DNA from: a virus
IMG/VR virus record: IMGVR_UViG_3300042892_000474
Span: 32,001 to 96,000 of that record
Length of the DNA stretch: 64,000 nt
Reading direction: 5' to 3' (one strand)
Numbering within the stretch: position 1 is the stretch's first letter; every line of letters begins with the position of its first letter. The notes below the pieces were generated by a model, which saw only the letters and a list, made by a program, of their open reading frames with translations, was not told where the DNA came from and did not search any database. This document shows positions 35,474 to 64,000 of this stretch, one piece after another. Made by a program: the position numbers and the translations under genes.

Positions 35474-35481
35474 GATAAATA
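35474..35481 (+). promoter_or_regulatory. late-promoter motif GATAAATA
   Basis: Intergenic, followed by GGAG and ATG 35506. Confidence 0.65.
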
Positions 35482-35505
35482 AGAAGAATATCGGAGTGAT
35501 TTGAA

Positions 35506-36723: not shown

Positions 36724-36732
36724 GGATAAAAG

Positions 36733-37708: not shown

Positions 37709-37715
37709 CTAAATA
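37709..37715 (+). promoter_or_regulatory. possible late-promoter variant CTAAATA heading the glyco-enzyme operon
   Basis: Intergenic, followed by AGGAG and ATG 37732. Confidence 0.4.
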
Positions 37716-37731: not shown

Positions 37732-38037
37732 ATGGACACAAAAACTTTAATTAGCGAAGCTAAAGCCCGATTTAGCCACAACGCTGCCAAATCATATCTA
37801 AAAGAAAAGTACGAAACACGATTAATCGTTGCAGAGCAAGGCGGCCTTTGGAGAGCAAACCTTCAAACAATCAATTTTTTAAATAATTCTCAATCTAATA
37901 CGGTCATCTTAGTTGACAGTTTTGAAAATCCGGTTGAGGTAAATCGTACAGAACTTTTAGCTAAACTTAATGAAACTTACGAATCTATAATGCGTGAGTG
38001 GCTAAATGAATGGGCAGAGCTAGAGAAAAAACGATGA
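37732..38037 (+). CDS. hypothetical protein (101 aa, helical)
   Basis: AGGAG RBS; ATGA overlap with the next gene. Confidence 0.7.
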   Translation: MDTKTLISEAKARFSHNAAKSYLKEKYETRLIVAEQGGLWRANLQTINFLNNSQSNTVILVDSFENPVEVNRTELLAKLNETYESIMREWLNEWAELEKKR

Positions 38038-38843
38038 GTAGAGGCGCACTACTCTTTGCGTTTAACTCTCCCAAATACGATTACTACGCTATGGCGGAGT
38101 ACACTGCAAAGAGAATCAATCATTTTTTAGGACTTCCGGTAACAATTGTTACTGATGAATCCAGCATACCAAATAATTCCAAATACAAGTTTGACAACAC
38201 TATTGTTGTAGAACCGGACAAGAACAACATCCGAGACTATGTAGTTTGGATTAACAAAGGTCGATATCAAGCATATGACCTAAGTCCATATGATGAAACA
38301 CTATTATTGGACACCGACTACGTAGTAAATAGTGACCGCTTACTAAGCACATTTGACATTTGTGATGATTTTTGTTGTCATGATACTACTTCATTTCTAA
38401 TGCACCCAAAAGCACCTCAAGAAATATTAAGTGCGTATAGCTTTAAAACACTGTGGGCTACAGTCATAACATTTAAAAAAACTCAAAGAGCAAAACAAAT
38501 CTTTGAATGCTTAGAAATGGTTCAAAAAAATTACGAGCATTACGCAAACATTCATAGTTTCATTGCCGGAGTATACCGCAATGATTACGCATTGACATTG
38601 GCCTTGCGTATTGCTAATGGGCATCTAAACATTAATTCAGACATTATTCCCTGGAATCTATTACACGTTGGTAAAAATACTTCAGTATACGCAGAAAGCA
38701 CAGATGAATTCAATACAGAGTATACCGTAATGTTTGACAATTGGCAACGAGGTAAAATTCGTAAAGAATATATCAATATCAAAGATACAGACTTTCACGT
38801 AATGAATAAAGAAAACTTTTTGGAGTTAATTAAAAATGGATAA
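38034..38843 (+). CDS. GT-A-fold glycosyltransferase-like protein
   Basis: YDLSPYDETLLLDTD (DxD), RNDYA, late HVMNK; start at the ATGA overlap 38034. Confidence 0.65.
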   Translation: MSRGALLFAFNSPKYDYYAMAEYTAKRINHFLGLPVTIVTDESSIPNNSKYKFDNTIVVEPDKNNIRDYVVWINKGRYQAYDLSPYDETLLLDTDYVVNSDRLLSTFDICDDFCCHDTTSFLMHPKAPQEILSAYSFKTLWATVITFKKTQRAKQIFECLEMVQKNYEHYANIHSFIAGVYRNDYALTLALRIANGHLNINSDIIPWNLLHVGKNTSVYAESTDEFNTEYTVMFDNWQRGKIRKEYINIKDTDFHVMNKENFLELIKNG

Positions 38844-39639
38844 AGGTTTTGTAATCATTGCCCAGGATGGCGGCTCATTAGAGACATATCAGAAATGTGC
38901 CGATGCATTAGCTAAAAGCATCAAGCGTACTATGCCCGACGCTAAAGTATCCATTATTACTGACAATAAAATAAAAAACAAATCTTTGTATGATAAAGTT
39001 ATACCCTTGCCCTACGGAGATCAAGCACCCAAAAGTTATTGGAAATTGAACAATGATTGGCAGGTGTATGATGCTAGTCCATATGAATACACTATAAAAC
39101 TAGAAGCAGATATATATCTTCCCAGTTCAATAGACTATTGGTGGGATGCATTGAAGCATAGAGATTTAGTGATATCTACTAACATTAGAGACTTTAAACA
39201 GGAATTATCCCCGTCCAGAGTATACCGCAGATTCATTGATGATAACAAATTGCCTGATACTTACAACGCAATCACTTATTTTAAAAAGTCTGACACGGCA
39301 AAGAACTTTTTTGAAGTAGTTAGACACCTATTTGAAAACTGGGCTGAGTTCAGAGCTACATTAAAATGTAGTCCGTATGAAGAAGCTACTACTGATTGGG
39401 TATATGCTTTGGCAGCGCACATTGTAGGGGTCGAGAATTGTACACTACCTGATTTTAAAGAAATGAGTATGGTGCATATGAAAAGGTTAATAAATAACTT
39501 ACCTACCGAAGACTGGACTGACGCACTAGTTTATGAAATATTGCCACATACATTGCGCATCAATTCATGTCCACAGCTTTACCCGTTTCACTATCATGTG
39601 AAGACGTTTTCTACTAAAATACTAAAAGCCTATGACTGA
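38836..39639 (+). CDS. GT-A-fold glycosyltransferase-like protein, paralog of the preceding gene
   Basis: YDASPYEYTIKLEAD (ExD), YFKKS..AK.FF, HMK/HYH; shares its motif order with 38034-38843. Confidence 0.6.
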   Translation: MDKGFVIIAQDGGSLETYQKCADALAKSIKRTMPDAKVSIITDNKIKNKSLYDKVIPLPYGDQAPKSYWKLNNDWQVYDASPYEYTIKLEADIYLPSSIDYWWDALKHRDLVISTNIRDFKQELSPSRVYRRFIDDNKLPDTYNAITYFKKSDTAKNFFEVVRHLFENWAEFRATLKCSPYEEATTDWVYALAAHIVGVENCTLPDFKEMSMVHMKRLINNLPTEDWTDALVYEILPHTLRINSCPQLYPFHYHVKTFSTKILKAYD

Positions 39640-39988
39640 AACTACACAAGATGATGATATTCTAATTCTTTGGGAGGCTCCTGTAATACAGGCTCCTGAG
39701 TTTCGTTTGTATTATGACGAAGCTACCGGTAAAGTTATTTGCTACACATGCGAAAAACTTGAAGGTAAGTATCTAGTAATCGATGCTATTACGTATGCAC
39801 AAGCAAGACCGGACCTTCGAATTATCGACGGGCGTATATCTACTGCTAGTAATCATGCAATTGTATCTAAGTTAATGCCACATCTTACCCAAGGTCAACT
39901 ATGTGAAGCAGAGGACATCAGTATAGTAGTTTCATCAGAAGGCGACAACATTAATAGATGGAAACTAAACACATATGAGCTTAAATAA
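39632..39988 (+). CDS. hypothetical protein (118 aa)
   Basis: Overlaps both neighbours by a few nt; FRLYYDE..G motif. Confidence 0.65.
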   Translation: MTETTQDDDILILWEAPVIQAPEFRLYYDEATGKVICYTCEKLEGKYLVIDAITYAQARPDLRIIDGRISTASNHAIVSKLMPHLTQGQLCEAEDISIVVSSEGDNINRWKLNTYELK

Positions 39989-40928
39989 TATAGTTGATGT
40001 AGCCGATTTGGACTGCATCTACCTAAGCTATGACGAGCCACAAAAAGAAGAATTTTGGCTAAAAATTAAAAACATGGTTCCTTGGGCAAAGCGGGTAGAC
40101 GGAATCAAGGGTTCAGATGCGGCACACAAAGCTGCCGGCGCCGCATCAGACACTGAGCGGTTCATATTGATTGACGGGGACAATATGCCCGATGAATCAT
40201 TCTTCAATATGCAACTAGACTTTACAGGCAGAGATCCATCATACACCAAAGCACAATTTCGTTGGAAGGCAGTTAATGCTATCAACGGATTGCGTTATGG
40301 TAATGGTGGCATGAGTTCTTGGACAAAGACTTATGTTGCTAACATGAAGACACATGAAAATCAAAAAGACGGAGATGCGGCTCGTATTGCTGACTTCTGT
40401 TTAGATAGCAAAGATAACTTGTATTGGGCAATGTATGATTGTTACAGCACAACATACCCCAATCATACTCCGTTTCAAGCTTGGAGAGCAGGCTTTAGAG
40501 AAGGAGTCAAGATGTGTCTTAACAAAGGTGAAGTTCCTTCAGTAGATGAGTTTAAAGAAACAGTTGCTAGTCGCAATTTGAACAACTTGACTATTTGGCA
40601 GAACGTAGGTGCGGATGTAGAGAACGGCATGTGGGCTATCTACGGTGCTAGACTCGGTACATACATGACTCTCTTAACTGATTGGGACGCACATAATGTT
40701 CAATGGTTTGACAATTACACGGTGTTATGGGAAGAACATATTAACCGAGATCCTGAACGTGAAGCAACATTGTTAGGCGCGGCATTACATGACAAGTTAG
40801 GTTTGCCAATGTGTACGCTAGGTAAAGAACAAAGTAAGTTCTTTAAGCGTCATTATCAAACAGACTATCATAATCAAGGCCCGTTAGTCACTGAGATGGA
40901 AGTTATTCGAAAAATTGAAGGATGGTAA
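39975..40928 (+). CDS. GT-A-like glycosyltransferase
   Basis: YLSYDEP, RVDGIKG...AH, FILIDGDN (DxD), YGNGG. Confidence 0.55.
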   Translation: MSLNNIVDVADLDCIYLSYDEPQKEEFWLKIKNMVPWAKRVDGIKGSDAAHKAAGAASDTERFILIDGDNMPDESFFNMQLDFTGRDPSYTKAQFRWKAVNAINGLRYGNGGMSSWTKTYVANMKTHENQKDGDAARIADFCLDSKDNLYWAMYDCYSTTYPNHTPFQAWRAGFREGVKMCLNKGEVPSVDEFKETVASRNLNNLTIWQNVGADVENGMWAIYGARLGTYMTLLTDWDAHNVQWFDNYTVLWEEHINRDPEREATLLGAALHDKLGLPMCTLGKEQSKFFKRHYQTDYHNQGPLVTEMEVIRKIEGW

Positions 40929-42337
40929 TGAGCGAAAGTCATGAACAAAAAAGAATCAAAGACATTAGGATCAAGATCGAAAACGAAACTGGTCCTACTT
41001 TTTGCCTTGCTAAATGGCATCATGTAACAATGTATTTGCAATCAGGAGAGACTCATAGTTGTTACCATCCTCAACCTCATAAGATTCCTTTAGAAGAATT
41101 ATATGATAACCCTTCTGCATTACATAACACACAGCAGAAGAAAGAAGAACGTAAACTAATGCTTGATGGTGGTAAGCCCACTGGATGCCAGTATTGCTGG
41201 AACATTGAAGCTATGGGTCCTGATTACATCAGTGACCGTCACATTCGTAACGCAAGTATCTTTACCGAAGAACGATATGAACAAACCGCAAAGGGTCCGT
41301 GGAATCAAAACATCAACCCCGAGTACATCGAAATCAACTTTGGTAACGAATGTAACTTCAAGTGTGGCTACTGTCATCCTAAGTATAGTACAAGCTTCTA
41401 CAAAGAGATTGAGCAGAATGGTCCTGTCACTAATGTGAAGAATCACCGTTGTGATATTGACTGGATGCGATTGTATCAACGTGAAGATGACAATCCATAC
41501 GTTGATGCGTTTTGGGAGTGGTGGCCAGAGATGCGTAAGACATTGAATATCATGCGTGTAACTGGTGGCGAACCTACACTACATAAGAGCACATGGACAT
41601 TGCTTGAAAAGATTGAAGAAGATCCTATGCCCTGGTTAGAGTTGAACATCAACAGCAACTTGGGTACTAAGCCTATTCTTATCGAGCGTTTATCAGACAA
41701 AGTTAAAAAACTTACAGGTGAAGGTAAGATTAAAAACTTTAAGTTGTTCACTAGTTTAGATACTTGGGGTGAACGTGCTGAATACATTCGTACTGGATTA
41801 GATTTAGAGTTGTGGGAAAAGAATTTTCACACGTATCTAACTCGCACAGACAGTCCGATCACATTCATGATTACATTCAATATCTTTAGTGTAACTACAT
41901 TTAAAAGTTTCTTAGAGAAGTTTATTGAATGGCGCAAGATATATGGATGGTATGACGATCCTATAAACCCACAACATCGTGTGCGTTTTGATACACCTTA
42001 TCTACGTGATCCTATTCAATACGATATGAACATTCTTCCTAAAGAAGAATTCATGCCTTACATGTACGAAGCACTGAAATACATGGAAGAAAATACTGAC
42101 GATAAACGCAGTGATGCTTTTAGTAGCATTGAGTACGAAAAATTTAAGCGTGTAGTTGACTACATGGCCGAGACTGTTTATCCTGAAGAAAAGCTAATTG
42201 AAGGACGTAGAGATTTCTATAATTGGTTCAACGAATTAGATGAACGTAGAGAAGCAGATATGTTATCTGTATTTCCAGAAATGCTAAGTTTTTACAGACT
42301 ATGCCAAGAGACAAATCAACTGAATCCATTTAAATGA
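40928..42337 (+). CDS. radical SAM enzyme with N-terminal SPASM/twitch-like domain
   Basis: CNFKCGYC and GGEP; N-terminal FCLAKW...SCYH...CQYC. Start at the TAATG overlap (ORF track 40922). Confidence 0.9.
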   Translation: MSESHEQKRIKDIRIKIENETGPTFCLAKWHHVTMYLQSGETHSCYHPQPHKIPLEELYDNPSALHNTQQKKEERKLMLDGGKPTGCQYCWNIEAMGPDYISDRHIRNASIFTEERYEQTAKGPWNQNINPEYIEINFGNECNFKCGYCHPKYSTSFYKEIEQNGPVTNVKNHRCDIDWMRLYQREDDNPYVDAFWEWWPEMRKTLNIMRVTGGEPTLHKSTWTLLEKIEEDPMPWLELNINSNLGTKPILIERLSDKVKKLTGEGKIKNFKLFTSLDTWGERAEYIRTGLDLELWEKNFHTYLTRTDSPITFMITFNIFSVTTFKSFLEKFIEWRKIYGWYDDPINPQHRVRFDTPYLRDPIQYDMNILPKEEFMPYMYEALKYMEENTDDKRSDAFSSIEYEKFKRVVDYMAETVYPEEKLIEGRRDFYNWFNELDERREADMLSVFPEMLSFYRLCQETNQLNPFK

Positions 42338-43563
42338 ACAAAGACTATTTACTAAACGACAGCAAAACATTTTGTATGTTTCCTTGGATTCATTTAAACG
42401 TGACTCCCAAAGGAGACATATATCCTTGCTGTTCAAACGACTATACAAAGCCCTTTGGTAACACTAAAGAAGTTACTTTACACAAAGCATTCAACAGCCC
42501 TAAGATGAAAGAACTTAGATTGGATATGTTGAATGAGCGTAAGAATGAAATCTGCAAGTTCTGTTATCAGCATGAAGAAGCAGGACCACACAGTTTCCGT
42601 AACTATAGCAAAGAACACTTTGGTAAGTATTATGACGAAGTTGTGCCCACTACCCAAGAAGATGGAACAGTAGACGAGTTTAAGATGCGTTACTTTGATA
42701 TCAGATTCAGTAACATTTGTAACTTCAAATGTCGTACATGTGGTTCAGAGTTTTCTAGTCAGTGGGGCCTAGAGATGAACAAGAATTACGATAAGGATCA
42801 CCCGATTGTTATTCACGTAGACGATGGTAAGGGTAAAGTACTAGAAGAAGTATTGGATCAAGTAGAACACATAGACCTAGCATACTTTGCGGGTGGAGAG
42901 CCCTTGATTACCGAAGAACATTATGTTATACTAGAAGAAATGATTCGTAAAGGCCGCACTGATGTAGTATTAAGATATAACACCAATGCTAGTAATATCA
43001 AGTACAAGAACCATGATGTACTTGATCTTTGGAAACACTTTAAGAAGGTTGAGTTGAGTTGTTCAATTGACCATTACGGCGAACGTGCTGAATTACTACG
43101 TTCAGGTACTGATTGGGGTAAAGTAGAAAGCAATCTATTAACCTTTAGAGATTTGGACTATGTTAGTTTTCAAATGAATACTGTATTTTCTATTTTTAAT
43201 TACTTGACGATTGGTGAGTTCTATCAATACTTGAAAGATAAGAATATTATCCGTAGAGAAGATTGGTATCATAGTTTATATCTTGCAGTTCATCCTATGT
43301 ATTACAGTGCAAAAAGTTTACCAAAATCATTGAAGCCATTAGCACAGGAAAAAGCATTGAAATGGGCAGAAGCTAACGATAACGACGGCACTAGCTTGTC
43401 AAGATTAGTTCGTGATGCTGTAAATTTTGCTAATGAGAGTGATACTTGGAGTGACGTTAAGACTCAGTTCTTAGGACATACTAAATCGCTTGACAGAATA
43501 CGTGAGGAAAGTTTCTGGAAAACATTCCCCGAGTTAAATAAATTATCTGAATTATTGGAGTAA
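42334..43563 (+). CDS. radical SAM enzyme with N-terminal SPASM/twitch domain
   Basis: CNFKCRTC and GGEP; N-terminal FCMFPW...G.IYPCC...CKFC. Confidence 0.9.
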   Translation: MNKDYLLNDSKTFCMFPWIHLNVTPKGDIYPCCSNDYTKPFGNTKEVTLHKAFNSPKMKELRLDMLNERKNEICKFCYQHEEAGPHSFRNYSKEHFGKYYDEVVPTTQEDGTVDEFKMRYFDIRFSNICNFKCRTCGSEFSSQWGLEMNKNYDKDHPIVIHVDDGKGKVLEEVLDQVEHIDLAYFAGGEPLITEEHYVILEEMIRKGRTDVVLRYNTNASNIKYKNHDVLDLWKHFKKVELSCSIDHYGERAELLRSGTDWGKVESNLLTFRDLDYVSFQMNTVFSIFNYLTIGEFYQYLKDKNIIRREDWYHSLYLAVHPMYYSAKSLPKSLKPLAQEKALKWAEANDNDGTSLSRLVRDAVNFANESDTWSDVKTQFLGHTKSLDRIREESFWKTFPELNKLSELLE

Positions 43564-43566
43564 TCA

Positions 43567-44838
43567 ATGGATAACGTAACAGTAGAGAACCTGGTTAAGC
43601 ACGGAAAACATTTCTGTGTATTGCCCTGGGTTCATTTTCACAGTTGGCCTGACGGTCGAGTAATGCCTTGCTGTATTGCAGATAGCAATATGCCTGTTGC
43701 AGACTTAAAAGATGGTGAATCAATCATCAACATGATGAATAGTAGTGATTATAAGAAATTGCGCACTGCTATGATGAATGATGAACCGGTCGAAGCATGT
43801 AAGCGTTGCTATGACTTAGAACTAATGGGTACTTGGACAATGCGCCAGTCTCATAATAAGCGCAAGGGCCTAGAGTACGTAAACTACATTGCAGAAAATA
43901 CAATGGAAGACGGAAGCCTCATTGACTTTGAAATGAAGTACATGGACTTGCGTTTTAGTAGTATCTGTAATATGAAGTGCAGAAGCTGTGGTCCAGGATG
44001 TTCAAGTCAATGGGCACAAGAGTTTGTCGACCGTGTTGGTATGGACAACTATGAGAAATACTTCAAGACCACTAAGATTGTTATTAACTCAGCAGAAGAA
44101 ATGGGATTCATGGCTAAACTTAAGCCATATCTCAAAGATGTAACAGAAGTCTATTTTGCAGGTGGCGAGATTATCATTACTCCTGAGCACTATGAATGCT
44201 TAGACTATTGGATTGAAAACGGATTAACGGATCAAGTTGAATTGACATATACTACAAACTTTAGTAGCTTGAAGTATAAAAAAGACATTGACTTGATTGC
44301 GTATTGGAAGAAATTCCCTAAACTGAAAATTTGGGCATCACTTGACGCACATGGTGATGTAGCTGAATGTATCAGAAAGGGTACAGATTGGGATCGTATT
44401 GTTAGTAATATCAAGTTAGTAAAAGAGCAAGTACCGCATGCTGAATTTCAGATTACTCCAACCATCAGTATTTGGAATGTGTTTACTTTCCCTGACTTCT
44501 TTGATTATATGATCAATGAAGGGTTTATTGATACTAAATCTAGCCCACGCTTTAATTTAGCTACCAACCCCTGGTATGCTAACATTATGATCCTACCCGC
44601 TAGTGTAAAGCGAAGACTCGCTGAATTGTACCGTGTCTATCAGAATCGTTACAAAGATAACATTGATATCTACAATGGATTTAAAATGATTATCTATAAC
44701 TTGACTGTGGGCGATGAGAACAAGGGTGGCATTCAAGAGTTTATCAAGTTCAATGAAGAACTAGATGACTTTAGGGATGAAAAATTGGAAGAAGTTATTC
44801 CAGAACTAAAAGAGGTATTCGATTGGGCAAGAAGCTAA
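43567..44838 (+). CDS. radical SAM enzyme with N-terminal SPASM/twitch domain
   Basis: CNMKCRSC and GGEI; N-terminal FCVLPW...G.VMPCC...CKRC. Confidence 0.9.
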   Translation: MDNVTVENLVKHGKHFCVLPWVHFHSWPDGRVMPCCIADSNMPVADLKDGESIINMMNSSDYKKLRTAMMNDEPVEACKRCYDLELMGTWTMRQSHNKRKGLEYVNYIAENTMEDGSLIDFEMKYMDLRFSSICNMKCRSCGPGCSSQWAQEFVDRVGMDNYEKYFKTTKIVINSAEEMGFMAKLKPYLKDVTEVYFAGGEIIITPEHYECLDYWIENGLTDQVELTYTTNFSSLKYKKDIDLIAYWKKFPKLKIWASLDAHGDVAECIRKGTDWDRIVSNIKLVKEQVPHAEFQITPTISIWNVFTFPDFFDYMINEGFIDTKSSPRFNLATNPWYANIMILPASVKRRLAELYRVYQNRYKDNIDIYNGFKMIIYNLTVGDENKGGIQEFIKFNEELDDFRDEKLEEVIPELKEVFDWARS

Positions 44839-45815
44839 TAGCGATTGAGGCTCCCCAGCCCTATCTCGCAATAACATGGCAAGTAAACAATTTCTGCAAC
44901 TATAAGTGCAGTTATTGTAACCCTGGCAACTGGGGAGGCACTGACCGTAACGAAGGTAACTTAGACATATACCTAAATAACTTAGAAACGATTATCAATC
45001 GCTACAAGTCAGCAGGGTATAAGAACTTTAAGTTCTTCTTCAGCGGTGGAGAACCTACAGCTTGGAAGAACTTTATTCCTATCTGTGAATGGATTTACGA
45101 AAAGTTACCTCGTGCTACTCTTGCAGTTAACACTAACTTGAGTCGTCCACTAGAGTGGTGGAAGAAACACTATCATCTATTTGACGATGTAGTGGGTAGC
45201 TTTCACATTGAATTCGCAGACAAACAGCGATATGAAGAAAACTCTATGTTCTTATGTGACAAGGTCAACTACCTTTCTACTAAGATGTTAATGCACGAAG
45301 AAAGATTCTGGGAAGTAGTTGACTATGGAAACTATCTTAAGACAGTAATGCCTAATTACTTCTTAGAGTGGACACCGTTGTTTGATGAAATGTCAGTAAA
45401 CACAGGCCCTTGGCACTACAAAGATCCTGCTAAAGAAGCATGGTTACGTGAGCATACAACGGAGATTCAACAAACTAAACGTAAGCCGATGAAACGCACT
45501 ACGTTGACAGTTAGTTATAACAAGTATGAAGATAATTCTACTGAAGTGTGTAACAGCAACGAAGTTATTGTAGCAGGAAACAACTTCTTTAACGGTTGGA
45601 GTTGCAACGTGGGTGATTGTATCTTTATCAATCCCGTAGGCGAGATGAGCCTAGCAAGTTGCGGCATGGGTGGTTACGTGGGTCATATATTAGATGATAT
45701 TAATCGTGTAGGCCCAAAACAAATCATATGTGAGAAAGAACACTGTCATTGCGGAACAGATATTATTATTCCTAAATTTGATGGCGAATGGTTAGAAAAA
45801 AATGCAGTTAAATGA
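44823..45815 (+). CDS. radical SAM enzyme with C-terminal Cys-rich (twitch/SPASM) domain
   Basis: CNYKCSYC and GGEP; C-terminal GWSC...SC...IC..EHCHC; TTG start with GAGG upstream. Confidence 0.88.
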   Translation: MGKKLIAIEAPQPYLAITWQVNNFCNYKCSYCNPGNWGGTDRNEGNLDIYLNNLETIINRYKSAGYKNFKFFFSGGEPTAWKNFIPICEWIYEKLPRATLAVNTNLSRPLEWWKKHYHLFDDVVGSFHIEFADKQRYEENSMFLCDKVNYLSTKMLMHEERFWEVVDYGNYLKTVMPNYFLEWTPLFDEMSVNTGPWHYKDPAKEAWLREHTTEIQQTKRKPMKRTTLTVSYNKYEDNSTEVCNSNEVIVAGNNFFNGWSCNVGDCIFINPVGEMSLASCGMGGYVGHILDDINRVGPKQIICEKEHCHCGTDIIIPKFDGEWLEKNAVK

Positions 45816-47142: not shown

Positions 47143-47143
47143 T

Positions 47144-49200: not shown

Positions 49201-49201
49201 C

Positions 49202-55867: not shown

Positions 55868-55893
55868 TAAATTTAAATGACTGTACCTAAACA

Positions 55894-55901
55894 AATAAAT
55901 A
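55894..55901 (+). promoter_or_regulatory. late-promoter-like motif AATAAATA
   Basis: Intergenic; upstream of GAGGT RBS and ATG 55924; sits in the loop of a TACCTAA/TTAGGTA inverted repeat. Confidence 0.45.
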
Positions 55902-55923
55902 TTAGGTATACATGAGGTATTAA

Positions 55924-58900
55924 ATGAAAAAAGTAGCAATGATTGGTGTAGGTAAATTGGGTCAAGACTGTGCAGAGGTTATGGCTGACGCAGGGTATGA
56001 CGTTGTAGGATATGACGTAGAGCCTAGACTTCCAATGTTCCCTATGAAGGATACAATTGAAGAAGCAGTTAAGGATAGAGACTTTATTTTTATAGCAGCT
56101 CCTACTCCACACAATCCAATTTACGGGGGAGAAACTCCAACAAGTCATCTCCCCAACAAAGATTTTGATTACACTATCGTTACTGATATTCTTACAGAGG
56201 TCAATAGACACGTTACTAGAAGTCAATTAGTTGTTCTTATCAGTACAGTGCTACCCGGAACAGTTCGAAACATCCTAGAGCCTTGTATCACTAACGCAAG
56301 ATTCATTTACAACCCTTACCTTATTGCTATGGGTACCGTAAAATGGGACATGGTAAATCCAGAAATGGTAATTATCGGTACAGAAGATGGTAGCCTAACA
56401 GGTGATGCTAGTGAACTAATTGACTTCTATAAAGTGTTTATGCAGAATGATCCACGCTATGAAGTTGGCACATGGGACGAAGCTGAGTCAATTAAGATTT
56501 TCTACAATACATTCATCAGTACCAAACTAGCATTAGTTAACATGGTTCAGGATGTTGCAGAGACTAACGGCAACATCAACGTAGATGTAGTTACACAAGC
56601 ATTGGCTAAGAGCACACATCGCATCATGGGTCCAGCATACATGAAAGCCGGACTAGGAGACGCCGGCGCGTGTCACCCACGGGATAACATTGCATTACGT
56701 TATCTAGCAGACAGATTAGATTTGGGTTATGACTTGTTTGATTCAATCATGACCGCACGTGAAGTACAAGCTGAACGTATGGCCTTGCGTTGCTTAAAGA
56801 ATGGCCGTAATGTAACAATCATCGGTAAAGCATACAAGCCATGTGTCCCCTATACAAACGGTAGTGCAAGTATGTTAGTGGGGTACTACATTGAAAAACA
56901 TGGTGGTAACTTAAACTACTACGATCCAAATACTGAGGATCATGACATGCGTGAAGACTGGACTCATGTGTATCTAATTGGATATTGGGAGAGTTGGGTT
57001 GAGAATTTAAAGTTTAAAGATCCGGGCGCTGTGATTATTGATCCATGGCGCATGATGACTAGTCATCAACATAGTGGTGAAATTATACATTACGGTGATA
57101 CTAGAACAAAGCACAATTACCGTGTTCCTTCTACTACAACTGAAACAATGTTACGTCAAGTGTTTGAAATGTTTCCAGACATTAAGGACTATGAAAATGC
57201 TATTCATTTGATTGACGCTACAATTAATTTTGAAACAATGTTTGTACGTAGACCTACAGAAGATATTGTTAAGGAAATGCGTGAAGCTCATAAGAATGGT
57301 AAGTCAAAGTTCTTGTTCTTTGCGGCTACTGAAGCATTTATGCCACATGTTCAAAGTAAGATACAACGTATTGCTAACATTGTTGATGATACTATTTCGG
57401 AAGAAGACATCATTGTAGTCACTGGTGTCGTTGATGCTGATAAAGTATATGAAAAATTAATTGATAAGAATGGTTGGAACAAACGTGTTTCATTGTTAAA
57501 TTGTCATTTCTTCAACTACATTACTACGACATATGCTCAAGGATATGAATACATTGGTGGGTATGATATTAGATTTAGGGGTAAAATATTCACATGTTTT
57601 AATAAACTAAATCGTGAGCATAGATTAATGCTACTTGAAAGAATGTTGCATGAAAATTTAGTTGATAAAGCCTGGTACAGCTTTGAGGGTGACACTGACT
57701 TTAAAGAAAAGATTCCGTTATTACGTACTCAAAAGTTTCCATTAATTAAACAAAATGCAGAACTATTTCCATTGCGATTGAATATCACAGAACATAGACA
57801 CAATCCAGTGGACATTCAACCCGATGATTTGCAATACTATAAAGACAGTTATTTCAGTGTAATCACTGAAACATTGTTCTATGATAAGAATCGTCCGGAT
57901 CAAGCGCATCGTCCTTTTGTTGAAGATAGCTTGTTTTTAACTGAAAAAACATATCGTTGCTTTGCATTAAATCACCCGTTCGTATTAATGGCTAGACCAC
58001 ATTGCTTGCGTGAATTACGTAAACAAGGGTATAAAACATTTAGTCCATACATTGATGAATCATATGATGACATTCAAAATGATGACCTGCGTTTTGAAGC
58101 AGTTGTTAAAGAAATTAAACGACTAAATAACTTTACAGGTGGCGATTGGGAAGTATGGCAAGCTGGTATAAAAGAAATTGTTGAATTCAATCAACAACAT
58201 TTCCATACTAATAAGGATTTTGCAATCACTAAAAATTATCAACAATTGTTTAATAATGTTGTTATTACTAAGCCAGTTGTTCACGTAGCTCAAAAAGTGC
58301 AAACAATAACATATCCAATTGATCAGCCTATTATTAAGCCAGAACCGTTGTCTGTAATCATACCTGTACAGGATATGCCTGCACCCAATTTGAATCTTGA
58401 TTCGGTTAGGTCTTTTCCGATGCCGGCCGAATCAAATCCCGATCAATTAGATTGGTCTAAACAAACTCGCAGTTTTGAAAATGGTTTCGTGCTAGAATAT
58501 CCTACGCACATGGATGGCGGCGGCTTTGAAATCAAAGATGAGTTATATTCATTGATTGAACGAATCGGAAAAGAACATTACGGACGTGCGTTAGATTGGT
58601 GTTCAGGAGTGGGCCCATTAGGCTATGATCTCCTAGACAAAAACAAAGTTGATACTATAGCATTTGTTGATATACACGGACCTTCTATAAAGTCTTGTTT
58701 ATCTAATGCATCTGCTAACAAAATGACTGACCGAGTTAGTGCATATGTATGTGATAACATAATGCAAATACCTTCTGCGGAAAAATTTGACTTAGTTATA
58801 GCAAATCCCCCGCATAGTGGTGACAGGCAAGCTTTTATTGAATCGCTTGAACACTTAAACTGCTTAGATAATACATGTAGGTTAATAGTTGATGATGGGT

Positions 58901-59088
58901 ATGAAGCACTGCAGGATTTCTATGAAAATATTAAAAAGTACCTAAATCCAGGTGCCGATATTTTCATCACTACCGGCGCCAACCAAGAACATTACATTGC
59001 GTGGGCTACAAGCGGTGGGTTGAAGTTTAAGGGTTTTTGCCCAATGGCAGATAACCCCAATAGTGGCATATACCATTATACTGTATAA
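55924..59088 (+). CDS. three-domain fusion: UDP-glucose/GDP-mannose 6-dehydrogenase + 'ET...TEK' GT-like domain + class I SAM methyltransferase
   Basis: GVGKLG, AESIKIFYN, G.AGACHPRD, AYKP (aa ~1-395); N..HR and SVITET...TEK...DESYD (aa ~400-775); DWCSGVG and VIANPPH (aa ~845-1054). Confidence 0.85.
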   Translation: MKKVAMIGVGKLGQDCAEVMADAGYDVVGYDVEPRLPMFPMKDTIEEAVKDRDFIFIAAPTPHNPIYGGETPTSHLPNKDFDYTIVTDILTEVNRHVTRSQLVVLISTVLPGTVRNILEPCITNARFIYNPYLIAMGTVKWDMVNPEMVIIGTEDGSLTGDASELIDFYKVFMQNDPRYEVGTWDEAESIKIFYNTFISTKLALVNMVQDVAETNGNINVDVVTQALAKSTHRIMGPAYMKAGLGDAGACHPRDNIALRYLADRLDLGYDLFDSIMTAREVQAERMALRCLKNGRNVTIIGKAYKPCVPYTNGSASMLVGYYIEKHGGNLNYYDPNTEDHDMREDWTHVYLIGYWESWVENLKFKDPGAVIIDPWRMMTSHQHSGEIIHYGDTRTKHNYRVPSTTTETMLRQVFEMFPDIKDYENAIHLIDATINFETMFVRRPTEDIVKEMREAHKNGKSKFLFFAATEAFMPHVQSKIQRIANIVDDTISEEDIIVVTGVVDADKVYEKLIDKNGWNKRVSLLNCHFFNYITTTYAQGYEYIGGYDIRFRGKIFTCFNKLNREHRLMLLERMLHENLVDKAWYSFEGDTDFKEKIPLLRTQKFPLIKQNAELFPLRLNITEHRHNPVDIQPDDLQYYKDSYFSVITETLFYDKNRPDQAHRPFVEDSLFLTEKTYRCFALNHPFVLMARPHCLRELRKQGYKTFSPYIDESYDDIQNDDLRFEAVVKEIKRLNNFTGGDWEVWQAGIKEIVEFNQQHFHTNKDFAITKNYQQLFNNVVITKPVVHVAQKVQTITYPIDQPIIKPEPLSVIIPVQDMPAPNLNLDSVRSFPMPAESNPDQLDWSKQTRSFENGFVLEYPTHMDGGGFEIKDELYSLIERIGKEHYGRALDWCSGVGPLGYDLLDKNKVDTIAFVDIHGPSIKSCLSNASANKMTDRVSAYVCDNIMQIPSAEKFDLVIANPPHSGDRQAFIESLEHLNCLDNTCRLIVDDGYEALQDFYENIKKYLNPGADIFITTGANQEHYIAWATSGGLKFKGFCPMADNPNSGIYHYTV

Positions 59089-59100
59089 TGTCCATATGTG

Positions 59101-59129
59101 TTGTACTACTTGTAACAGAGTAGTATAAT
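59101..59129 (+). promoter_or_regulatory. sigma70-type promoter
   Basis: TTGTAC-N17-TATAAT followed by AGGAG and a TTG start at 59150. Confidence 0.7.
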
Positions 59130-59149
59130 ATAGAAAATAGGAGCACATT

Positions 59150-61414
59150 TTGGATTTTACCTTAAGATCATTGGCTGTTGACGAATTAAAGCCTAAGGAG
59201 CGTCCCACCGAGGATATAGCTGATGCGCGCCATCGTAGTATGATGGAAGCAATTGCTCCTTATGCCAAAGCAACAGTTCAAAAGAACTTAACCCCTGTAT
59301 ATGTTGACTACAAGACAAGAAACACTAAGTTAGTTCTTGTACTGTGCCCCGAATGGAGCCCTTATATGCCTCCGTTTAGTCTTGCACGATTAAGCGGTGT
59401 TGCCAAGAGTTCGGGCTATGAAACACACATTATTGATTTGAATGTTAAAGCGTATAACGCATTCAAGAAAGACTGGTGGCCTAAACAGCGTATTCCATTT
59501 AGACTATGGGATCCGTCTAGTTCATGGCATTGGCTGGGCGATACTTACATGAATGATATTCATCCATTGTTGGGCCCTGAGATACTAGAACCAGCAGTAG
59601 ATAAGATCATTGAAATGAACCCGGATGTAGTTGGCTTCAGTGTTTATTACATTAGCGAAGAACCTACGAAGTGGATGTGTCGTGAAATCAAGCGTAGAGC
59701 ACCTCACATTAAGATTGCAGTCGGTGGACCTAACGTACACAAGAGTTGGTTTGCAACACATCCGTACTATGACTATGTTGTGGTAGGTGAAGGTGAGCAG
59801 AATCTATTAGTAATGCTTGACGAAATAGAAGACAAGATAGAAGTAGAGTATCCTCGCTATCTTACACAGCCCGAAGATCAACGTATCAACATCAACGGCT
59901 TGCCTATGCCCGACTATGAGAGCATTGACTTTTCACAGTACGAATTACCTAACGGCGTTAATAGTGAAATCAGTAGAGGTTGCACTGCTAAATGTACATT
60001 CTGTGAAGAAACACACTTTTGGAAGTATCGTCAGCGTCAAAGTGTTGACTTGATTACAGAAGTTGAATGGCTGTACTACAACAAAGGCACAGATATTATC
60101 TGGTTCATCGATTCGTTAATCAATGGTAACCCTAAAGAACTACGAGCCTTTGCCCTTGCTCTTAAAGAGAAAGACTTGAAAGTCAAGTGGACAGGATACG
60201 CACGTTGCGATGGTCGTATGGACTTAGAGTACTTGCAAGACTTAGCAGCCGGCGGCGCTATCATGTTTAACTTTGGTGTTGAATCCGGAAGTCAGAAAGT
60301 ACTTGATGATATGGCTAAAGGTGTTACTATCGCTGAGATGGAACAGAACTTTATCGACTGTAAAAAGACAGGCATCTGGGCAGCTACTAACTGGATCGTA
60401 GGCTTCCCGACAGAAGACTATCAAGACTATTCAGACACTATGACATTCTTCTGGCGTATGCGTAACAACAACATTAACAATGCAGGTTTAGGTGTTGGCT
60501 ATGGCATGGGTCCTGAGACTATTGTAGGGCAGCACCCTCACAAGTTTAATATCAGTTGGCACAAGTATCAAGGTCACTGGATACGCAATGACTTTACGTT
60601 CGGTGGCACACACTTGATGATTCGTGTCAAAACATGGCACATGTTTGCTGACTTCTTTCGCGGAGTAACCGATGTACCTATCAGCTATCCGGTGCGTCAT
60701 GCATTAGAGAAAGAACACTACAAAATCAAACTCAATCATACTGATATGGCTAGAGAGATTGAGTATGAGAAGTTTGATTACAACATTATTAAGCCAAACA
60801 TTAATCCTTTTGCTGATGCATTAGTAAATGAAATGTGGCCCTTCTTGCGCATGTTATGGAAATGTCGTGGTGGATACGAAGCAGAGATACGATACAATCC
60901 TGAGATTGACTTAAAAGAATTTGGTCAACAATTTGGCCCCGGGATGTTTAATGCCGTGTACAAGTTTAAGATTAGTGACAGCGGTAAGTGGGAAGCAGAC
61001 TTTGATATGAAGTTTGAGCAGATTGATAATCCGTTTGATGACCGTGAGCGTCCGCCCCTAGGTCGTAAAGGTCCGTTCTATGCACAAGATTATTCACGTA
61101 TGATGAGCAACACTGCACTACGAGCCCGTAAACTTGCAAAGCCTACATGGAGTGACGCTGAAGGTCGTGATGGTCAAGACTTTAGTGATTTGTTAGATGA
61201 AGAAACAGAACTTAACAAGAACGTTGACTTTACGTTTGACTATCATTACATTGGCTACGGTAACTGGGGCAATTACAAAGACTTTGAAGTTGCTGTATCT
61301 AATACTTCACGTGAAGTTATTCCGGAAAAAGAAGCAATGTTTGCTTTAGATTTTGCAAAGCAACCACAAACCATTAGTATAGATTCAATCAAACGTAAGA
61401 AAGATATAGAATGA
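59150..61414 (+). CDS. cobalamin-dependent radical SAM enzyme
   Basis: PDVVGFS...VGGP...GEGE, SRGCTAKCTFC, FGVESGSQKVL, IVGFPTE. Confidence 0.9.
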   Translation: MDFTLRSLAVDELKPKERPTEDIADARHRSMMEAIAPYAKATVQKNLTPVYVDYKTRNTKLVLVLCPEWSPYMPPFSLARLSGVAKSSGYETHIIDLNVKAYNAFKKDWWPKQRIPFRLWDPSSSWHWLGDTYMNDIHPLLGPEILEPAVDKIIEMNPDVVGFSVYYISEEPTKWMCREIKRRAPHIKIAVGGPNVHKSWFATHPYYDYVVVGEGEQNLLVMLDEIEDKIEVEYPRYLTQPEDQRININGLPMPDYESIDFSQYELPNGVNSEISRGCTAKCTFCEETHFWKYRQRQSVDLITEVEWLYYNKGTDIIWFIDSLINGNPKELRAFALALKEKDLKVKWTGYARCDGRMDLEYLQDLAAGGAIMFNFGVESGSQKVLDDMAKGVTIAEMEQNFIDCKKTGIWAATNWIVGFPTEDYQDYSDTMTFFWRMRNNNINNAGLGVGYGMGPETIVGQHPHKFNISWHKYQGHWIRNDFTFGGTHLMIRVKTWHMFADFFRGVTDVPISYPVRHALEKEHYKIKLNHTDMAREIEYEKFDYNIIKPNINPFADALVNEMWPFLRMLWKCRGGYEAEIRYNPEIDLKEFGQQFGPGMFNAVYKFKISDSGKWEADFDMKFEQIDNPFDDRERPPLGRKGPFYAQDYSRMMSNTALRARKLAKPTWSDAEGRDGQDFSDLLDEETELNKNVDFTFDYHYIGYGNWGNYKDFEVAVSNTSREVIPEKEAMFALDFAKQPQTISIDSIKRKKDIE

Positions 61415-62001
61415 AAGAAGTTCAGCAATTTGAAAGATTGATTGCTGACTACTACAACGCACCGTATGCAGTTGCAGTAGATTGTTGTACACACGGTATA
61501 GAGTTAGCATTACGCTATACTAAGTTTGATAACGTAACATGTCCGACTAATACATATCTAAGCGTTCCTATGACGTTTGAGAAGTTGAACTTAGATTGGC
61601 AGTTCAATCAACAATACTGGAAAGATTATTACTATGTAGGCAACACTAACATCATCGATGCCGCTGTCTATTGGAAGAAGAATGGATACATACCTAATAC
61701 GTTTATGTGTCTAAGCTTTCAGTACCGAAAGCATTTGAATGTTGGACGTGGCGGCATGATCTTAGTAGAACATGACTATGAATATGTTGCACTAAAGAAA
61801 ATGAGTTATGATGGTCGTGTGCCTGATACTCTCTGGGCTGAACAAGATATAGATATGTTGGGATACCATTACTATATGACCCCGGAGACAGCAGTATTAG
61901 GTATGAATAGATTCGAACAGATTAAAGACACTGACCCAAAACAATGGTCACACACAGATTATCCTGATATATCAAAAATGAAGGTATTTAATGTTAAGTA
62001 A
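61411..62001 (+). CDS. shortened DegT/DnrJ/EryC1/StrS-family PLP aminotransferase
   Basis: V..FE..IA.Y...AVAV..CT.G..LAL, DAA, SFQYRKHL..G.GG (PLP lysine), GY.Y.M...A.LG; only 196 aa. Confidence 0.75.
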   Translation: MKEVQQFERLIADYYNAPYAVAVDCCTHGIELALRYTKFDNVTCPTNTYLSVPMTFEKLNLDWQFNQQYWKDYYYVGNTNIIDAAVYWKKNGYIPNTFMCLSFQYRKHLNVGRGGMILVEHDYEYVALKKMSYDGRVPDTLWAEQDIDMLGYHYYMTPETAVLGMNRFEQIKDTDPKQWSHTDYPDISKMKVFNVK

Positions 62002-62977
62002 GAACGAATGGGATCCTTTGCTATCAGTTATAGTAGGAGTAGCCGACGATGCTAGAGTTCCTATTGTAGATCCTAGTTTACGAATGGTAAACTATGCTGA
62101 TGTAAAGAAAATATATAATATTCCAAACGCGGGCCTATACCCAGAACAAGTTATCAATGAGGCTAATGAAGATTTAGATTTATTCAGCAAATTCTTAGAG
62201 TCATGTAATGTTAGAGTACACAGACCAGATAGGTCTGTAGTGCCTAGCTATTATAACTATTGCCCACGTGATAGTGTATTGATACACGATGATAAAGTTA
62301 TAGCAACGCCCATGCCTTTGCGTAGTAGACAAGACGAGTATAAAGCACTATTGCCAGTGTTACAAAACTATAGCGATGTACTAGTACCTAGGTTTCCTAG
62401 AGATAGTAGCTTATACAATAGCGAGTGTTTAGGTAACCCGGACATTCTAGCATTGACTGAAACCGAACCAGCATTTGATGCGGCAAACATACTTAGAAGC
62501 AACGATGATTTGTTTTATCTTGTAAGTAATAGCGGAAACAAAAGCGGTGCTGAACTATTACAGCTTGCACACCCAGATAAGAAAGTACATACTATCGAAG
62601 GCGTGTACAGTTATATGCACCTTGACAGCACGATTGCATTACTACGTGAGGGATTGATGTTATTGAATCCTGCACGTATCAAGTCAGTAGAACAACTACC
62701 TAAGCCACTACAATCGTGGGATGTTATTTGGGCACCCGAACCAGTAGATATAGGTCATTACCCTGGCTACTGTAATGCAAGTACCTGGGTTAGTGTGAAC
62801 TTATTCAGCGTTAATCCTAACCTTGCTGTAGTAGAAGCACACCAAGAACCGTTACGAATAGAATTAGAAAAGCATAAGATTGATGTACAGATGATGCCTA
62901 TGCGTCACGCACGTACATTGGGAGGCTGCTTCCATTGTGTAACTTTAGACATAGAAAGGAATCACAATGGCAAATAA
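61991..62977 (+). CDS. amidinotransferase (glycine / inosamine-phosphate amidinotransferase family)
   Basis: NEWDPL..VIVG, CPRD, FDAAN, HLD, GGCFHC.TLD (Cys-His-Asp catalytic set). Confidence 0.9.
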   Translation: MLSKNEWDPLLSVIVGVADDARVPIVDPSLRMVNYADVKKIYNIPNAGLYPEQVINEANEDLDLFSKFLESCNVRVHRPDRSVVPSYYNYCPRDSVLIHDDKVIATPMPLRSRQDEYKALLPVLQNYSDVLVPRFPRDSSLYNSECLGNPDILALTETEPAFDAANILRSNDDLFYLVSNSGNKSGAELLQLAHPDKKVHTIEGVYSYMHLDSTIALLREGLMLLNPARIKSVEQLPKPLQSWDVIWAPEPVDIGHYPGYCNASTWVSVNLFSVNPNLAVVEAHQEPLRIELEKHKIDVQMMPMRHARTLGGCFHCVTLDIERNHNGK

Positions 62978-64000
62978 ATGGACAAGAGGACACATAAGTA
63001 GATTCTGGAATACAGATGATGTAAAGAAGTTTGATTATGTTAGACAACCTTTAATGGATTCTGAACTTGAAGAATGGAAAGCTAAAGGCTATGACTATGT
63101 AAAAAGTTTTTCAGGGTCTATGTATGATAGTCGTAATCCTATGCCTGAATGGGTTAATAGGTTTGGCAACATATTCGACTTTAAAAACATGACGTATAAT
63201 TTCTACAAAATGCAACAATTAGAAATTATGCCAACGCACGTAGACCATTTTCAAACCTATATGAGATTGTTCAATGTAGAGTATGAAAATGCAGTTAGAA
63301 TTTTAGTAATGTTAGATGATTGGAAGCCTGGCCATTACTTAGAAGTAGATGGAGTAGGTATAGTTAATTGGGTAGCCGGCGATTATTTTATGTGGGACAG
63401 TGACGTTCCGCATGCAGCCAGTAATATAGGGATTGAAGATAGATACACCCTACAAATTACAGGCACTAGAATTAATTCAGAAGATGTATATAAGCATGTG
63501 CATTGGTATAATGTTCCTGGGTTAGTAACAAAGAAAGAATCATTGTTCAGTCCTGAAATGACTGAAATGAAAAAGCGCATGAATAAAAATTCTCCGTACT
63601 ACATTTATATGTACAACAGAGAGTTACCAGATTTAGAAACTATCAATCACAGCGCAGAAGATACAGCCTATTTAAATGATAATGGATTAGAAATCTATCT
63701 GTATGAGCCGTTGTGTTCGTATCGCAAGAATGACCAACAAATGTATCCTCCGCATGGATCTAAGCATTCATTAATTTTCTATTCTGAGTTCCACTATGAT
63801 CATGTGCAGAAAACAGATGACATGCGGGCAGTAGAATTAGACAGTATTGTAGAATACATTGACAGAAACAAATTAACAAATGTCACAGTGAAAACCTGTG
63901 ACTATAACATAGAAAAGTTTTACACTCATTACCTATCCAAAATGAAATTGGAAGCTGATGATTTGTTTGTAAAGTATTTTGACACTAATGAATTTGAGAA
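62967..64000 (+). CDS. 2OG-Fe(II) oxygenase-like cupin fused to a further domain; runs off the right edge and is missing from the ORF track
   Basis: Hand translation from ATG 62967 is open to the end (MANKWTRGH...); PTHVDH...VPHAASNIG...RYTLQITG gives HxD...H...R; AGGA RBS; overlaps the amidinotransferase stop. Confidence 0.75.
   Translation, partial: MANKWTRGHISRFWNTDDVKKFDYVRQPLMDSELEEWKAKGYDYVKSFSGSMYDSRNPMPEWVNRFGNIFDFKNMTYNFYKMQQLEIMPTHVDHFQTYMRLFNVEYENAVRILVMLDDWKPGHYLEVDGVGIVNWVAGDYFMWDSDVPHAASNIGIEDRYTLQITGTRINSEDVYKHVHWYNVPGLVTKKESLFSPEMTEMKKRMNKNSPYYIYMYNRELPDLETINHSAEDTAYLNDNGLEIYLYEPLCSYRKNDQQMYPPHGSKHSLIFYSEFHYDHVQKTDDMRAVELDSIVEYIDRNKLTNVTVKTCDYNIEKFYTHYLSKMKLEADDLFVKYFDTNEFE

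Follow-up and report, generated by a model that had tools for sequence, protein, structure and literature searches.

Certain eukaryotic viruses, among them the chlorovirus PBCV-1 (A064R and its partners) and Mimivirus (fibril-glycan clusters), assemble glycans in the cytoplasm with enzymes of their own, on capsid or fibril targets that have been shown experimentally. In T4-like aquatic phages, uncharacterized cassettes of glycosyltransferase (GT), UDP-glucose dehydrogenase and radical S-adenosylmethionine (SAM) genes lie among the tail-fibre genes (PMC7029224, PMC5332604, PMC12801897), with up to 12 radical SAM genes in T4-like environmental genomes (PMC5332604), and the host recognition cluster (HRC) of pelagimyophages and cyanomyophages (Zaragoza-Solas et al. 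2020) has been read as a region for host O-chain modification (PMC7029224). Here we analysed a 64,000-nucleotide window (bases 32001-96000 of the 106,074-bp IMG/VR viral contig IMGVR_UViG_3300042892_000474) from an uncultured, freshwater, T4-like jumbo myovirus, in which an island of GT, radical SAM and sugar-tailoring genes, running for more than 27 kb, directly follows a fibre module. CheckV estimated the contig to be 26% complete, implying a genome near 400 kb. It is well supported that the island encodes a cytoplasmic, membrane-independent pathway predicted to assemble and heavily tailor a glycan, while we see about an even chance that the acceptor is a protein of the virion, the simplest candidate being a product of the fibre module just upstream.

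The HRC resembles the island in being a large hypervariable region of T4-like aquatic myoviruses, with tail-fibre genes next to cassettes of GT8, UDP-glucose dehydrogenase and radical SAM genes whose make-up changes from one close relative to another, but it has been described by annotation only and the comparison rests on gene content. Peculiar to the island, in this comparison, are its ordering as an operon, an invariant core with a proposed priming role, seven or more copies of a GT-B family confined to viruses, a GDP-mannose 3,5-epimerase (GME), B12-dependent radical SAM enzymes, amidino- and carbamoyltransferases and a giant repeat transferase, all in a freshwater phage of ~400 kb. PBCV-1 and Mimivirus share with it membrane-independent assembly, their own sugar-nucleotide enzymes and multidomain transferase-plus-methyltransferase proteins, but they infect eukaryotes, have no radical SAM enzymes and resemble the island's GT-A protein 39975 at the level of fold only. 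In mycobacteriophage virion O-glycosylation (Freeman et al. 2023), as cited in PMC12619734, phage transferases decorate virion proteins as a shield, which is the role proposed for the island; by that account the mycobacteriophage systems comprise one to few transferases, without donor-synthesis or tailoring genes, in another phage group and host. A preliminary description of the window knew of no characterized phage pathway of this complexity; this holds for characterized pathways, but similar uncharacterized cassettes are those published in the three studies cited above.

Among cultured phages in the collection, only the Ralstonia jumbo phage RsoM2USA has a homologue of 39975. Its ORF347-355 comprise a fibre-like gene, a small open reading frame (ORF), GT8, GT8, a small ORF, GT-A, an N-terminal-twitch (N-twitch) radical SAM enzyme (38% identical to 40922) and a second GT-A, preserving the island's core order at 26-39% identity with every gene annotated as hypothetical. 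It differs from the island in that GT-B cassettes, an epimerase cluster and B12 enzymes are all absent from the locus. Directly before these core genes lie genes for proteins that mass spectrometry has identified in the virion (MG752970; PMC8504454), and homologues of the island's three fibre-module neighbours lie just 5' of the GT block.

From position 37732 to the end of the window, the plus strand carries exactly 22 ORFs (Table 1; genes are named by their first position) and the minus strand no competing ORF. The first begins 48 nt after the last fibre gene, and junctions range from -28 to +3 nt except at 55924 and 59150, which are preceded by gaps of 56 and 61 nt, respectively, so the ORF list and gap table reproduce the run of mostly overlapping genes that had been described. 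The block and its start stand, but the end given for this cluster of more than 26 kb, 64000, is merely the window edge: genes continue to the contig end in the order 62967, a conserved 32-aa ORF, the carbamoyltransferase and a protein of >2,568 aa broken off by the contig end. In a near-identical relative (L049), the full-length form of this protein is followed by two GT-B genes, 2-oxoglutarate (2OG) oxygenases, a subtilase, a porin and a MoxR ATPase, which together give a full island of ~38 kb. No 19-residue hydropathy window exceeded 1.35 in any island protein, so none would be membrane-embedded, in line with the preliminary description. The flippase and polymerase that it had not seen are missing from the island and likewise from five complete relatives (335-367 kb), in which we also found no polyprenyl-phosphate sugar-1-phosphate transferase of either class. 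With neither a membrane protein nor a lipid-carrier initiating enzyme, phage-encoded lipid-linked assembly is unlikely.

Table 1 Features of the island and its surroundings, in window positions unless otherwise indicated
Feature	Position	Strand	Basis or remark
Single 6,493-aa ORF (Thr 11%, Ser 8%, Asn 8%, near-zero Cys/His)	15205-34686	+	Directly 3' of gp6-like wedge gene
Three fibre-module genes (34853, 35506, 36733; 206, 405, 316 aa)	34853-37683	+	Constant 5' neighbours of island
CTAAATA late-type promoter-like motif	37709-37715	+	23 nt upstream of 37732
Conserved 101-aa helical protein	37732-38037	+	No family match; in 80/80 loci
GT-A transferase, GT8/glycogenin-like (predicted)	38010-38843	+	Profile A7 vs glycogenin, E 5e-6; paralogue of 38836
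GT-A transferase, GT8/glycogenin-like (predicted), LDTD motif	38836-39639	+	Profile A7; paralogue of 38010
Conserved 118-aa Cys-containing protein	39632-39988	+	Kept in 80/80 loci
GT-A transferase (predicted), DGDN motif, helical C-terminal half	39975-40928	+	Model pLDDT (predicted local distance difference test) 85; Foldseek
N-twitch radical SAM enzyme (predicted), universal in island family	40922-42337	+	NF033640, 317 bits; CX3CX2C at residue 144
N-twitch radical SAM enzyme (predicted)	42334-43563	+	NF033640, 373 bits; CX3CX2C at residue 129
N-twitch radical SAM enzyme (predicted)	43567-44838	+	NF033640, 357 bits; CX3CX2C at residue 134
Radical SAM enzyme, C-terminal Cys-rich SPASM/twitch-like tail	44823-45815	+	Sequence; CX3CX2C
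GT-B transferase (predicted), virus-only 'GT10-like' family	45802-47142	+	Paralogy
GME (predicted; to GDP-L-galactose/GDP-L-gulose)	47144-48124	+	PDB 2c59
GT-B transferase (predicted), family member that was modelled	48121-49200	+	AlphaFold2 model, structure searches
SGNH/GDSL-like hydrolase or acyltransferase; GCSWT, G.GN, C.HPT	49202-50077	+	Motif blocks
B12-dependent radical SAM, KedN5-like sugar C-methyltransferase type	50070-51998	+	NF033712, E 1.5e-74, below family cut-off
Two tandem GT-B 'GT10-like' units in one protein (predicted)	51995-54040	+	Paralogy
SGNH-like protein; GCSFT, G.GN, D.HP	54015-54806	+	Motif blocks
Divergent GT-B 'GT10-like' protein (predicted)	54803-55867	+	Paralogy
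ATAAATA late-type promoter-like motif	55895-55901	+	29 nt upstream of 55924
Fusion, 1054 aa: nucleoside diphosphate (NDP)-sugar 6-dehydrogenase + GT-B 'GT10-like' + MTS/HemK-type N-methyltransferase (NPPH)	55924-59088	+	Family profiles, paralogy
B12-dependent radical SAM, methyltransferase class	59150-61414	+	Sequence; CX3CX2C
Half-length DegT-like protein, 196 aa, SF..K motif kept	61411-62001	+	Family profile
StrB1-like amidinotransferase (predicted)	61991-62977	+	Profile vs 1bwd, E 5e-109
Fusion: small HxD...H cupin + GT-B 'GT10-like' domain	62967-64000, to window-equivalent 64751	+	Motif, paralogy
Conserved 32-aa ORF	L002:2787-2885 (window-equivalent 64786-64884)		Between 62967 and carbamoyltransferase
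NodU/CmcH/TobZ carbamoyltransferase (predicted)	64890, just past window		Carbam_trans_C 163 bits, Carbam_trans_N 123.5 bits
Giant repeat transferase	L002:4370-12073 (window-equivalent 66369-74072)		2,717 aa in L049

Ten unnamed ORFs of the window, scanned against Pfam and PHROGs at thresholds up to E <= 10, matched no transferase family, and profiles A1, A2 and A3 returned only coiled-coil noise from the PDB. Because these transferases were invisible to Pfam, we turned to independent tests based on profiles, folds and paralogy, which gave three GT-A and seven GT-B domains in the window and at least 13 transferase domains with the downstream part included. The preliminary count of at least nine is therefore exceeded (at least ten in the window), its three GT-A domains being recovered and its six GT-B-like domains becoming seven by paralogy. 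Profile A7 matched 19 glycogenin sequences over the N-terminal 100 residues (E 5e-6 to 2e-5), the Pfam GT8 model matching neither 38010 nor 38836 at E <= 10; profile-level similarity and a DxD motif together mark both as predicted GT8 enzymes. A GT-A fold with a DxD motif suggests a GT2-like enzyme for the modelled 39975, the most conserved transferase of the island (median identity, 82%), with the PBCV-1 capsid transferase A64R (PDB 2p6w) as best Foldseek match and the peptide S-glycosyltransferases SunS and ThuS also matched. Non-transferase folds, which the preliminary description had named as grounds for its own rejection, did not appear, the models of 39975 and 48121 being GT-A and GT-B, respectively.

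All-against-all BLAST revealed that a single domain of ~200 aa accounts for the seven GT-B copies (45802, 48121, two in 51995, 54803, 55924 and 62967). For 48121, an AlphaFold2 model from a 32-sequence alignment (pLDDT 91.8) had the Helicobacter pylori alpha-1,3-fucosyltransferase as best Foldseek match, with the other leading matches nearly all GT-B, and GT-B transferases dominated the top matches in two independent structure searches. Residues R127, E201, E213 and K214 are invariant in the 32 sequences, and all seven copies contain the motif N..(H)R ... E[TS]...TEK..P..KPF, which may correspond to the C-terminal nucleotide-sugar motif of fucosyltransferases. Neither PF00852 nor any other GT model of Pfam matched the 32 family members (E <= 1) or the window proteins (E <= 10), and without a PF00852 match membership in GT10 was set aside. 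From the model, we conclude that the family probably consists of GT-B transferases with a GT10-like motif, GT10 membership itself not being demonstrable. Relatives in the ESM Atlas are hypothetical proteins from viruses only, and 293 were confirmed in IMG/VR.

Structural similarity of the GT-B domain to T4 BGT and AGT, along with the NPPH methyltransferase, raises the prospect that phage DNA is the target, hypermodified by the island with an elaborate glycan that would extend T4-type glucosylation or arabinosylation. As the window's own genome is 26% complete, the test for a hydroxymethylase was made on the five complete relatives, each of which has one PF00303 gene with a canonical ThyA score and no hydroxymethylase-like paralogue, making DNA an unlikely target. 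The number of transferases and the late-type expression signals also fit DNA poorly, and we consider it scarcely probable.

The radical SAM complement agrees with the preliminary description, which had listed four SPASM/twitch and two B12 enzymes: CX3CX2C is carried by all six. Genes 40922, 42334 and 43567 score well above the curated cut-off of NF033640 (N_Twi_rSAM; 170 bits), have N-terminal Cys clusters in addition to CX3CX2C, and are thus predicted members of that family. A weak 'Radical_SAM' match inside the fusion protein 55924 was rejected, as it has no CX3CX2C. In bacteria, contigs of Bdellovibrionota metagenome-assembled genomes (MAGs; L166, L173, L175, L197 and L200) contain arrays of five to eight N-twitch paralogues, which adjoin a PhoX alkaline phosphatase in two genomes, and a Na/Pi cotransporter, a DegT aminotransferase and a histidine kinase lie near such genes in individual loci; the bacterial family may be linked to phosphate starvation. 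These contexts, mainly from Bdellovibrionota and Flavobacteriales MAGs, include no polysaccharide loci and were uninformative as a clue to substrate.

SPASM/twitch enzymes are typical peptide maturases, several of which are weakly matched by the island enzymes in NCBIfam. They could act on a peptide or protein, crosslinking or epimerizing a fibre protein or the 32-aa peptide in the manner of RiPPs (peptides made by the ribosome and altered after translation), with the transferases then glycosylating the product as in glycocins. The SunS and ThuS matches of 39975 would fit such a scheme, as would the 32-aa ORF (MFIIRFF...RKRDPFIYK) before the carbamoyltransferase. That peptide, however, is encoded ~20 kb from the twitch enzymes, and NF033640 is without an assigned substrate. 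Sugar chemistry is indicated by the sugar-nucleotide enzymes and the KedN5-like enzyme, and no obvious precursor peptide was noted where the bacterial homologues adjoin PhoX, DegT and transporters. On balance, we regard peptide modification as very unlikely. The 32-aa ORF itself (MFIIRFFKNLIKEYKYRKRIKELRKRDPFIYK) has its own TATAAATA and a hairpin upstream; peptides ending in ...RKRDPFIYK occur in at least seven related loci, and DPFIY is similar to an element, DPPYIY, found in the giant repeat protein.

Enzymes for donor synthesis and tailoring were largely as first described. Gene 47144 matches the Arabidopsis GME (2c59) over residues 3-320 at E 2e-98, against 1e-28 for the next family (UXS), and being closest to characterized GMEs is a predicted GME, as proposed; the NDP-sugar dehydrogenase and methyltransferase were likewise recovered, both within 55924. 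L-fucose is 6-deoxy-L-galactose, so it is chemically coherent that a GDP-L-hexose epimerase occurs together with GT-B domains resembling fucosyltransferases. The amidinotransferase call was borne out by a match to 1bwd over residues 3-325, with H315 and C316 invariant in the C-terminal ...GGGFHCVT..., pointing to a StrB1/AGAT-fold enzyme. Three other assignments held in part. The aminotransferase is DegT-like by family match but only half-length, lacking whatever would align to profile positions ~80-185 as well as its C-terminal domain, a short form conserved in relatives. Both SGNH proteins show the motif blocks and match each other by profile (A4/A5, hhalign 96%), but PDB GDSL matches are weak (E 0.27-0.8, on block V) and Pfam gave none at E <= 10. 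The N-terminal cupin of 62967 is a probable 2OG oxygenase from its HxD...H motif, but its Pfam match to an Asp/Asn-hydroxylase is faint (E 0.025) and a profile search of the domain against the PDB found nothing.

Past the window edge, both Pfam domains of 64890 exceed their cut-offs, marking it as a predicted carbamoyltransferase, to which the giant repeat protein is constantly linked. The latter has ~30 tandem 65-aa repeats (FDFSWHP...PYIY.FGTQW...GGPRY; NW.VP..VD...FDFSWHPD..PPYIY.FGTQWQKTGGPRY...KYV), followed by degenerate GT-A-like modules and then a 39975-like GT-A domain. It matched no family, and an ESM Atlas search with the repeat region gave scores of 0.75-0.76 only.

Several of these families, namely the StrB1-like amidinotransferase, TobZ/NodU-type carbamoyltransferase, KedN5-like B12-radical SAM enzyme, DegT and twitch radical SAM enzymes, would suit a product that stays free in solution, whether an aminoglycoside-like pseudo-oligosaccharide or an oligosaccharide with decorations, directed at the host or at competitors. 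The island shares with aminoglycoside and unusual-sugar pathways family-level membership of such enzymes (StrB1, TobZ/NodU, KedN5/GenK-type B12-radical SAM and DegT). A related operon in Synechococcus phage S-SCSM2R (ORF301-310), with a 57% identical amidinotransferase, a short DegT of the same length, a radical SAM enzyme, 2OG oxygenases and several GTs, has been published as 'antibiotic synthesis genes', a predicted function (PMC12801897); its ORF305, a 588-nt gene annotated as AHBA synthase, equals 61411 in length. It differs in being much smaller and not beside fibre genes. Among the ORFs scanned, however, we saw no cyclitol-forming enzyme, exporter or self-resistance gene, and unlike aminoglycoside pathways the island lies in a phage late-operon context and has 10-13 transferase domains, far above the need of such molecules. 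A free product would also leave cassette turnover and fibre linkage unexplained, and we hold it to be highly improbable.

We next compared 80 related viral loci fetched around the GT8 gene, which has at least 566 relatives in IMG/VR. All 80 share the order giant-protein C-terminus, 34853, 35506, 36733, 37732, GT8, GT8, 39632 and GT-A, with radical SAM genes next in loci long enough. The survey for linkage to fibre genes called for in the preliminary description thus found them preceding the core in every locus and in RsoM2USA. Beyond the core, the interior varies gene by gene: some loci have the full set, others other radical SAM paralogues, and minimal islands pass from GT-A and one radical SAM gene directly to the carbamoyltransferase and giant transferase. 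Over 38 loci of the same island type, median identities were 74-83% for radical SAM enzymes and 73% for the epimerase but 26-50% for GT-B genes. One relative with flanks 92-99% identical is without exactly gene 48121, and another has two copies of it. Such cassette turnover and low GT-B identity are the pattern expected of an exposed glycan under diversifying selection. Separately, one lake metagenome contig joins position 51976 to 54048 (a 2,071-nt joint), which would remove the double GT-B gene 51995; the joint has no more than 23 flanking letters and may be artefactual, and we place no weight on it.

From the enzyme families found, we infer the substrates and the order of steps in the following scheme. 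Host GDP-mannose would be converted to GDP-L-galactose or GDP-L-gulose by the epimerase, and UDP-hexose to a uronic acid by the dehydrogenase. The invariant GT8-GT8-GT-A-radical SAM core would then prime a soluble acceptor and install and edit the first sugars, perhaps with the two small proteins 37732 and 39632 as adaptors. Variable GT-B cassettes and fused tailor-plus-transfer proteins (dehydrogenase-GT-methyltransferase and oxygenase-GT) would lengthen the chain, B12-radical SAM enzymes would C-methylate it, and the amidinotransferase, short DegT, cupin, carbamoyltransferase, N-methyltransferase and SGNH proteins would decorate it; these families would methylate, amidinate, carbamoylate and (de)acylate, and possibly aminate and oxidize, the sugars. 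The outcome would be a virion coated with sugars that vary by strain, as a shield or adhesion modifier. The first part of this scheme, a cytoplasmic pathway building a heavily modified glycan, had already been proposed, and the donor enzymes, at least ten GT domains, tailoring enzymes and absence of membrane proteins support it well.

Expression signals bear on the target. The canonical T4 late promoter TATAAATA was rejected as the motif in use, having no occurrence in the window (1-64000, both strands) against ten expected; the motif in use is [A/C]TAAATA. It is depleted on the plus strand (16 hits versus 39 expected; for ATAAATA, 10 versus 25, with only 3 on the minus strand), which suggests strong negative selection against stray late-promoter-like sequences. 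Seven of the 16 hits nevertheless sit 5-60 nt 5' of starts, a zone comprising 2.7% of positions (~16-fold enrichment), heading two baseplate genes, two fibre-module genes, 37732, 55924 and the 32-aa ORF. Several relatives have TATAAATA before the 55924 homologue and CTAAATA-type boxes before the 59150 homologue. Since the motif heads baseplate, fibre and island genes alike, we predict from T4 biology that the island is cotranscribed with late virion genes.

For a virion protein, the best-supported target though on indirect grounds, speak the fibre-gene linkage, invariant in 80 of 80 loci and in RsoM2USA, the [A/C]TAAATA motif common to island, baseplate and fibre genes, the cassette-like turnover of transferases, the lack of a lipid-carrier initiating enzyme and the sole, canonical ThyA in the five complete relatives, and the PBCV-1 capsid-glycan transferase as best match of the GT-A model. 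Several points weigh on the other side. Structural-module order is also conserved for historical reasons, so adjacency is weak evidence, and the related S-SCSM2R sub-operon does not lie beside fibre genes. The GT-B model of 48121 matches T4 DNA glucosyltransferases at least as well as protein or glycan transferases. Late timing is read off the T4 late consensus, and one RNA library has short contigs on several island genes, for which DNA carry-over is possible and strand and level are not readable. Three of the four complete relatives that carry the island (G001-G003) lack the obvious acceptor of this genome, a 3,002-aa Gly-X-Ser fibre, and this collagen-like fibre was accordingly rejected as an obligatory acceptor.

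A further alternative is that the island remodels a host envelope glycan (lipopolysaccharide (LPS) core or O-chain, capsule or surface-protein glycan) by way of the host's lipid carrier, flippase and export, either to block superinfection or to keep progeny off debris. Soluble peripheral proteins are the norm among O-antigen transferases, which makes the absence of membrane segments compatible with such a role. It is also the published reading of analogous GT8/UDP-glucose dehydrogenase/radical SAM cassettes in pelagimyophages (PMC7029224), the S-SCSM2R operon sits among non-structural genes, and a porin gene lies just past the island in L049. Against these stand the lack of an initiating phosphoglycosyltransferase, flippase or polymerase in the island and the five complete relatives, the late-type promoter motif common to island and virion genes, fibre-gene linkage constant across large divergence, and a GT8 profile that matches glycogenin and no LPS transferase in the PDB. 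We therefore judge host envelope remodelling to be unlikely. The L049 porin gene (L049:17180-18058; Porin_4, E 1.5e-18) and the accompanying subtilase are candidates for auxiliary functions directed at the host envelope.

Tentatively, and with more doubt than belief, we suggest that an entire, abundant lineage of freshwater jumbo phages bears a virion protein with a long, L-hexose-rich, radical-SAM-edited glycan carrying guanidino, carbamoyl and C-methyl groups, made in the cytoplasm without a lipid carrier by an invariant priming core and swappable transferase cassettes that would give O-antigen-like 'serotypes'. If so, glycan-editing enzymes of a new class would be represented by the N-twitch radical SAM family, and the tandem-repeat GT-A protein of ~2,700 aa would be a scaffolded transferase of a new kind.

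Upstream of the island, SbcCD-like nuclease genes are followed by a baseplate hub and gp25-like and gp6-like wedge genes, the wedge protein sharing ~33% identity with its counterparts in the cultured jumbo myoviruses Phosso, Atu_ph07 and GAP32, among others. The 6,493-aa ORF beyond them is probably a giant baseplate or fibre protein, with a C-terminus 40-83% conserved among relatives. Between it and 34853 lies an unlisted 50-aa ORF (34701-34853, plus strand) with GATAAATA 11 nt upstream. In the fibre module, whose order is identical in 80 of 80 loci, 35506 ends in a Peptidase_G2 intramolecular-chaperone domain and 36733 is 28% Ser+Thr. By megablast, cultured phages had no DNA match to the island and baseplate region except for a 105-nt stretch of the epimerase gene. 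Near-identical DNA was found in lake and freshwater metagenomes of at least 16 studies, and this recurrence indicates that the system is ecologically common.

New here are the structural support for GT-A and GT-B assignments, the architecture of invariant core and variable cassettes, the promoter statistics and the lowered standing of DNA and the collagen-like fibre as targets. As reduced versions are carried by the cultured phages RsoM2USA and S-SCSM2R, the question is experimentally approachable now. Were the product to be on the virion, the island would far exceed in complexity any glycosylation system known from bacteriophages and would be a bacterial-virus counterpart of the chlorovirus and mimivirus glycan machinery. 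It would explain the transferase and radical SAM cassettes among the fibre genes of T4-like aquatic phages, for which the published reading as host LPS modification would need revisiting, and would provide a biological setting for the 'GT10-like' GT-B family, the N-twitch radical SAM enzymes and the FDFSWHP-repeat transferase, which are found almost only in viruses.

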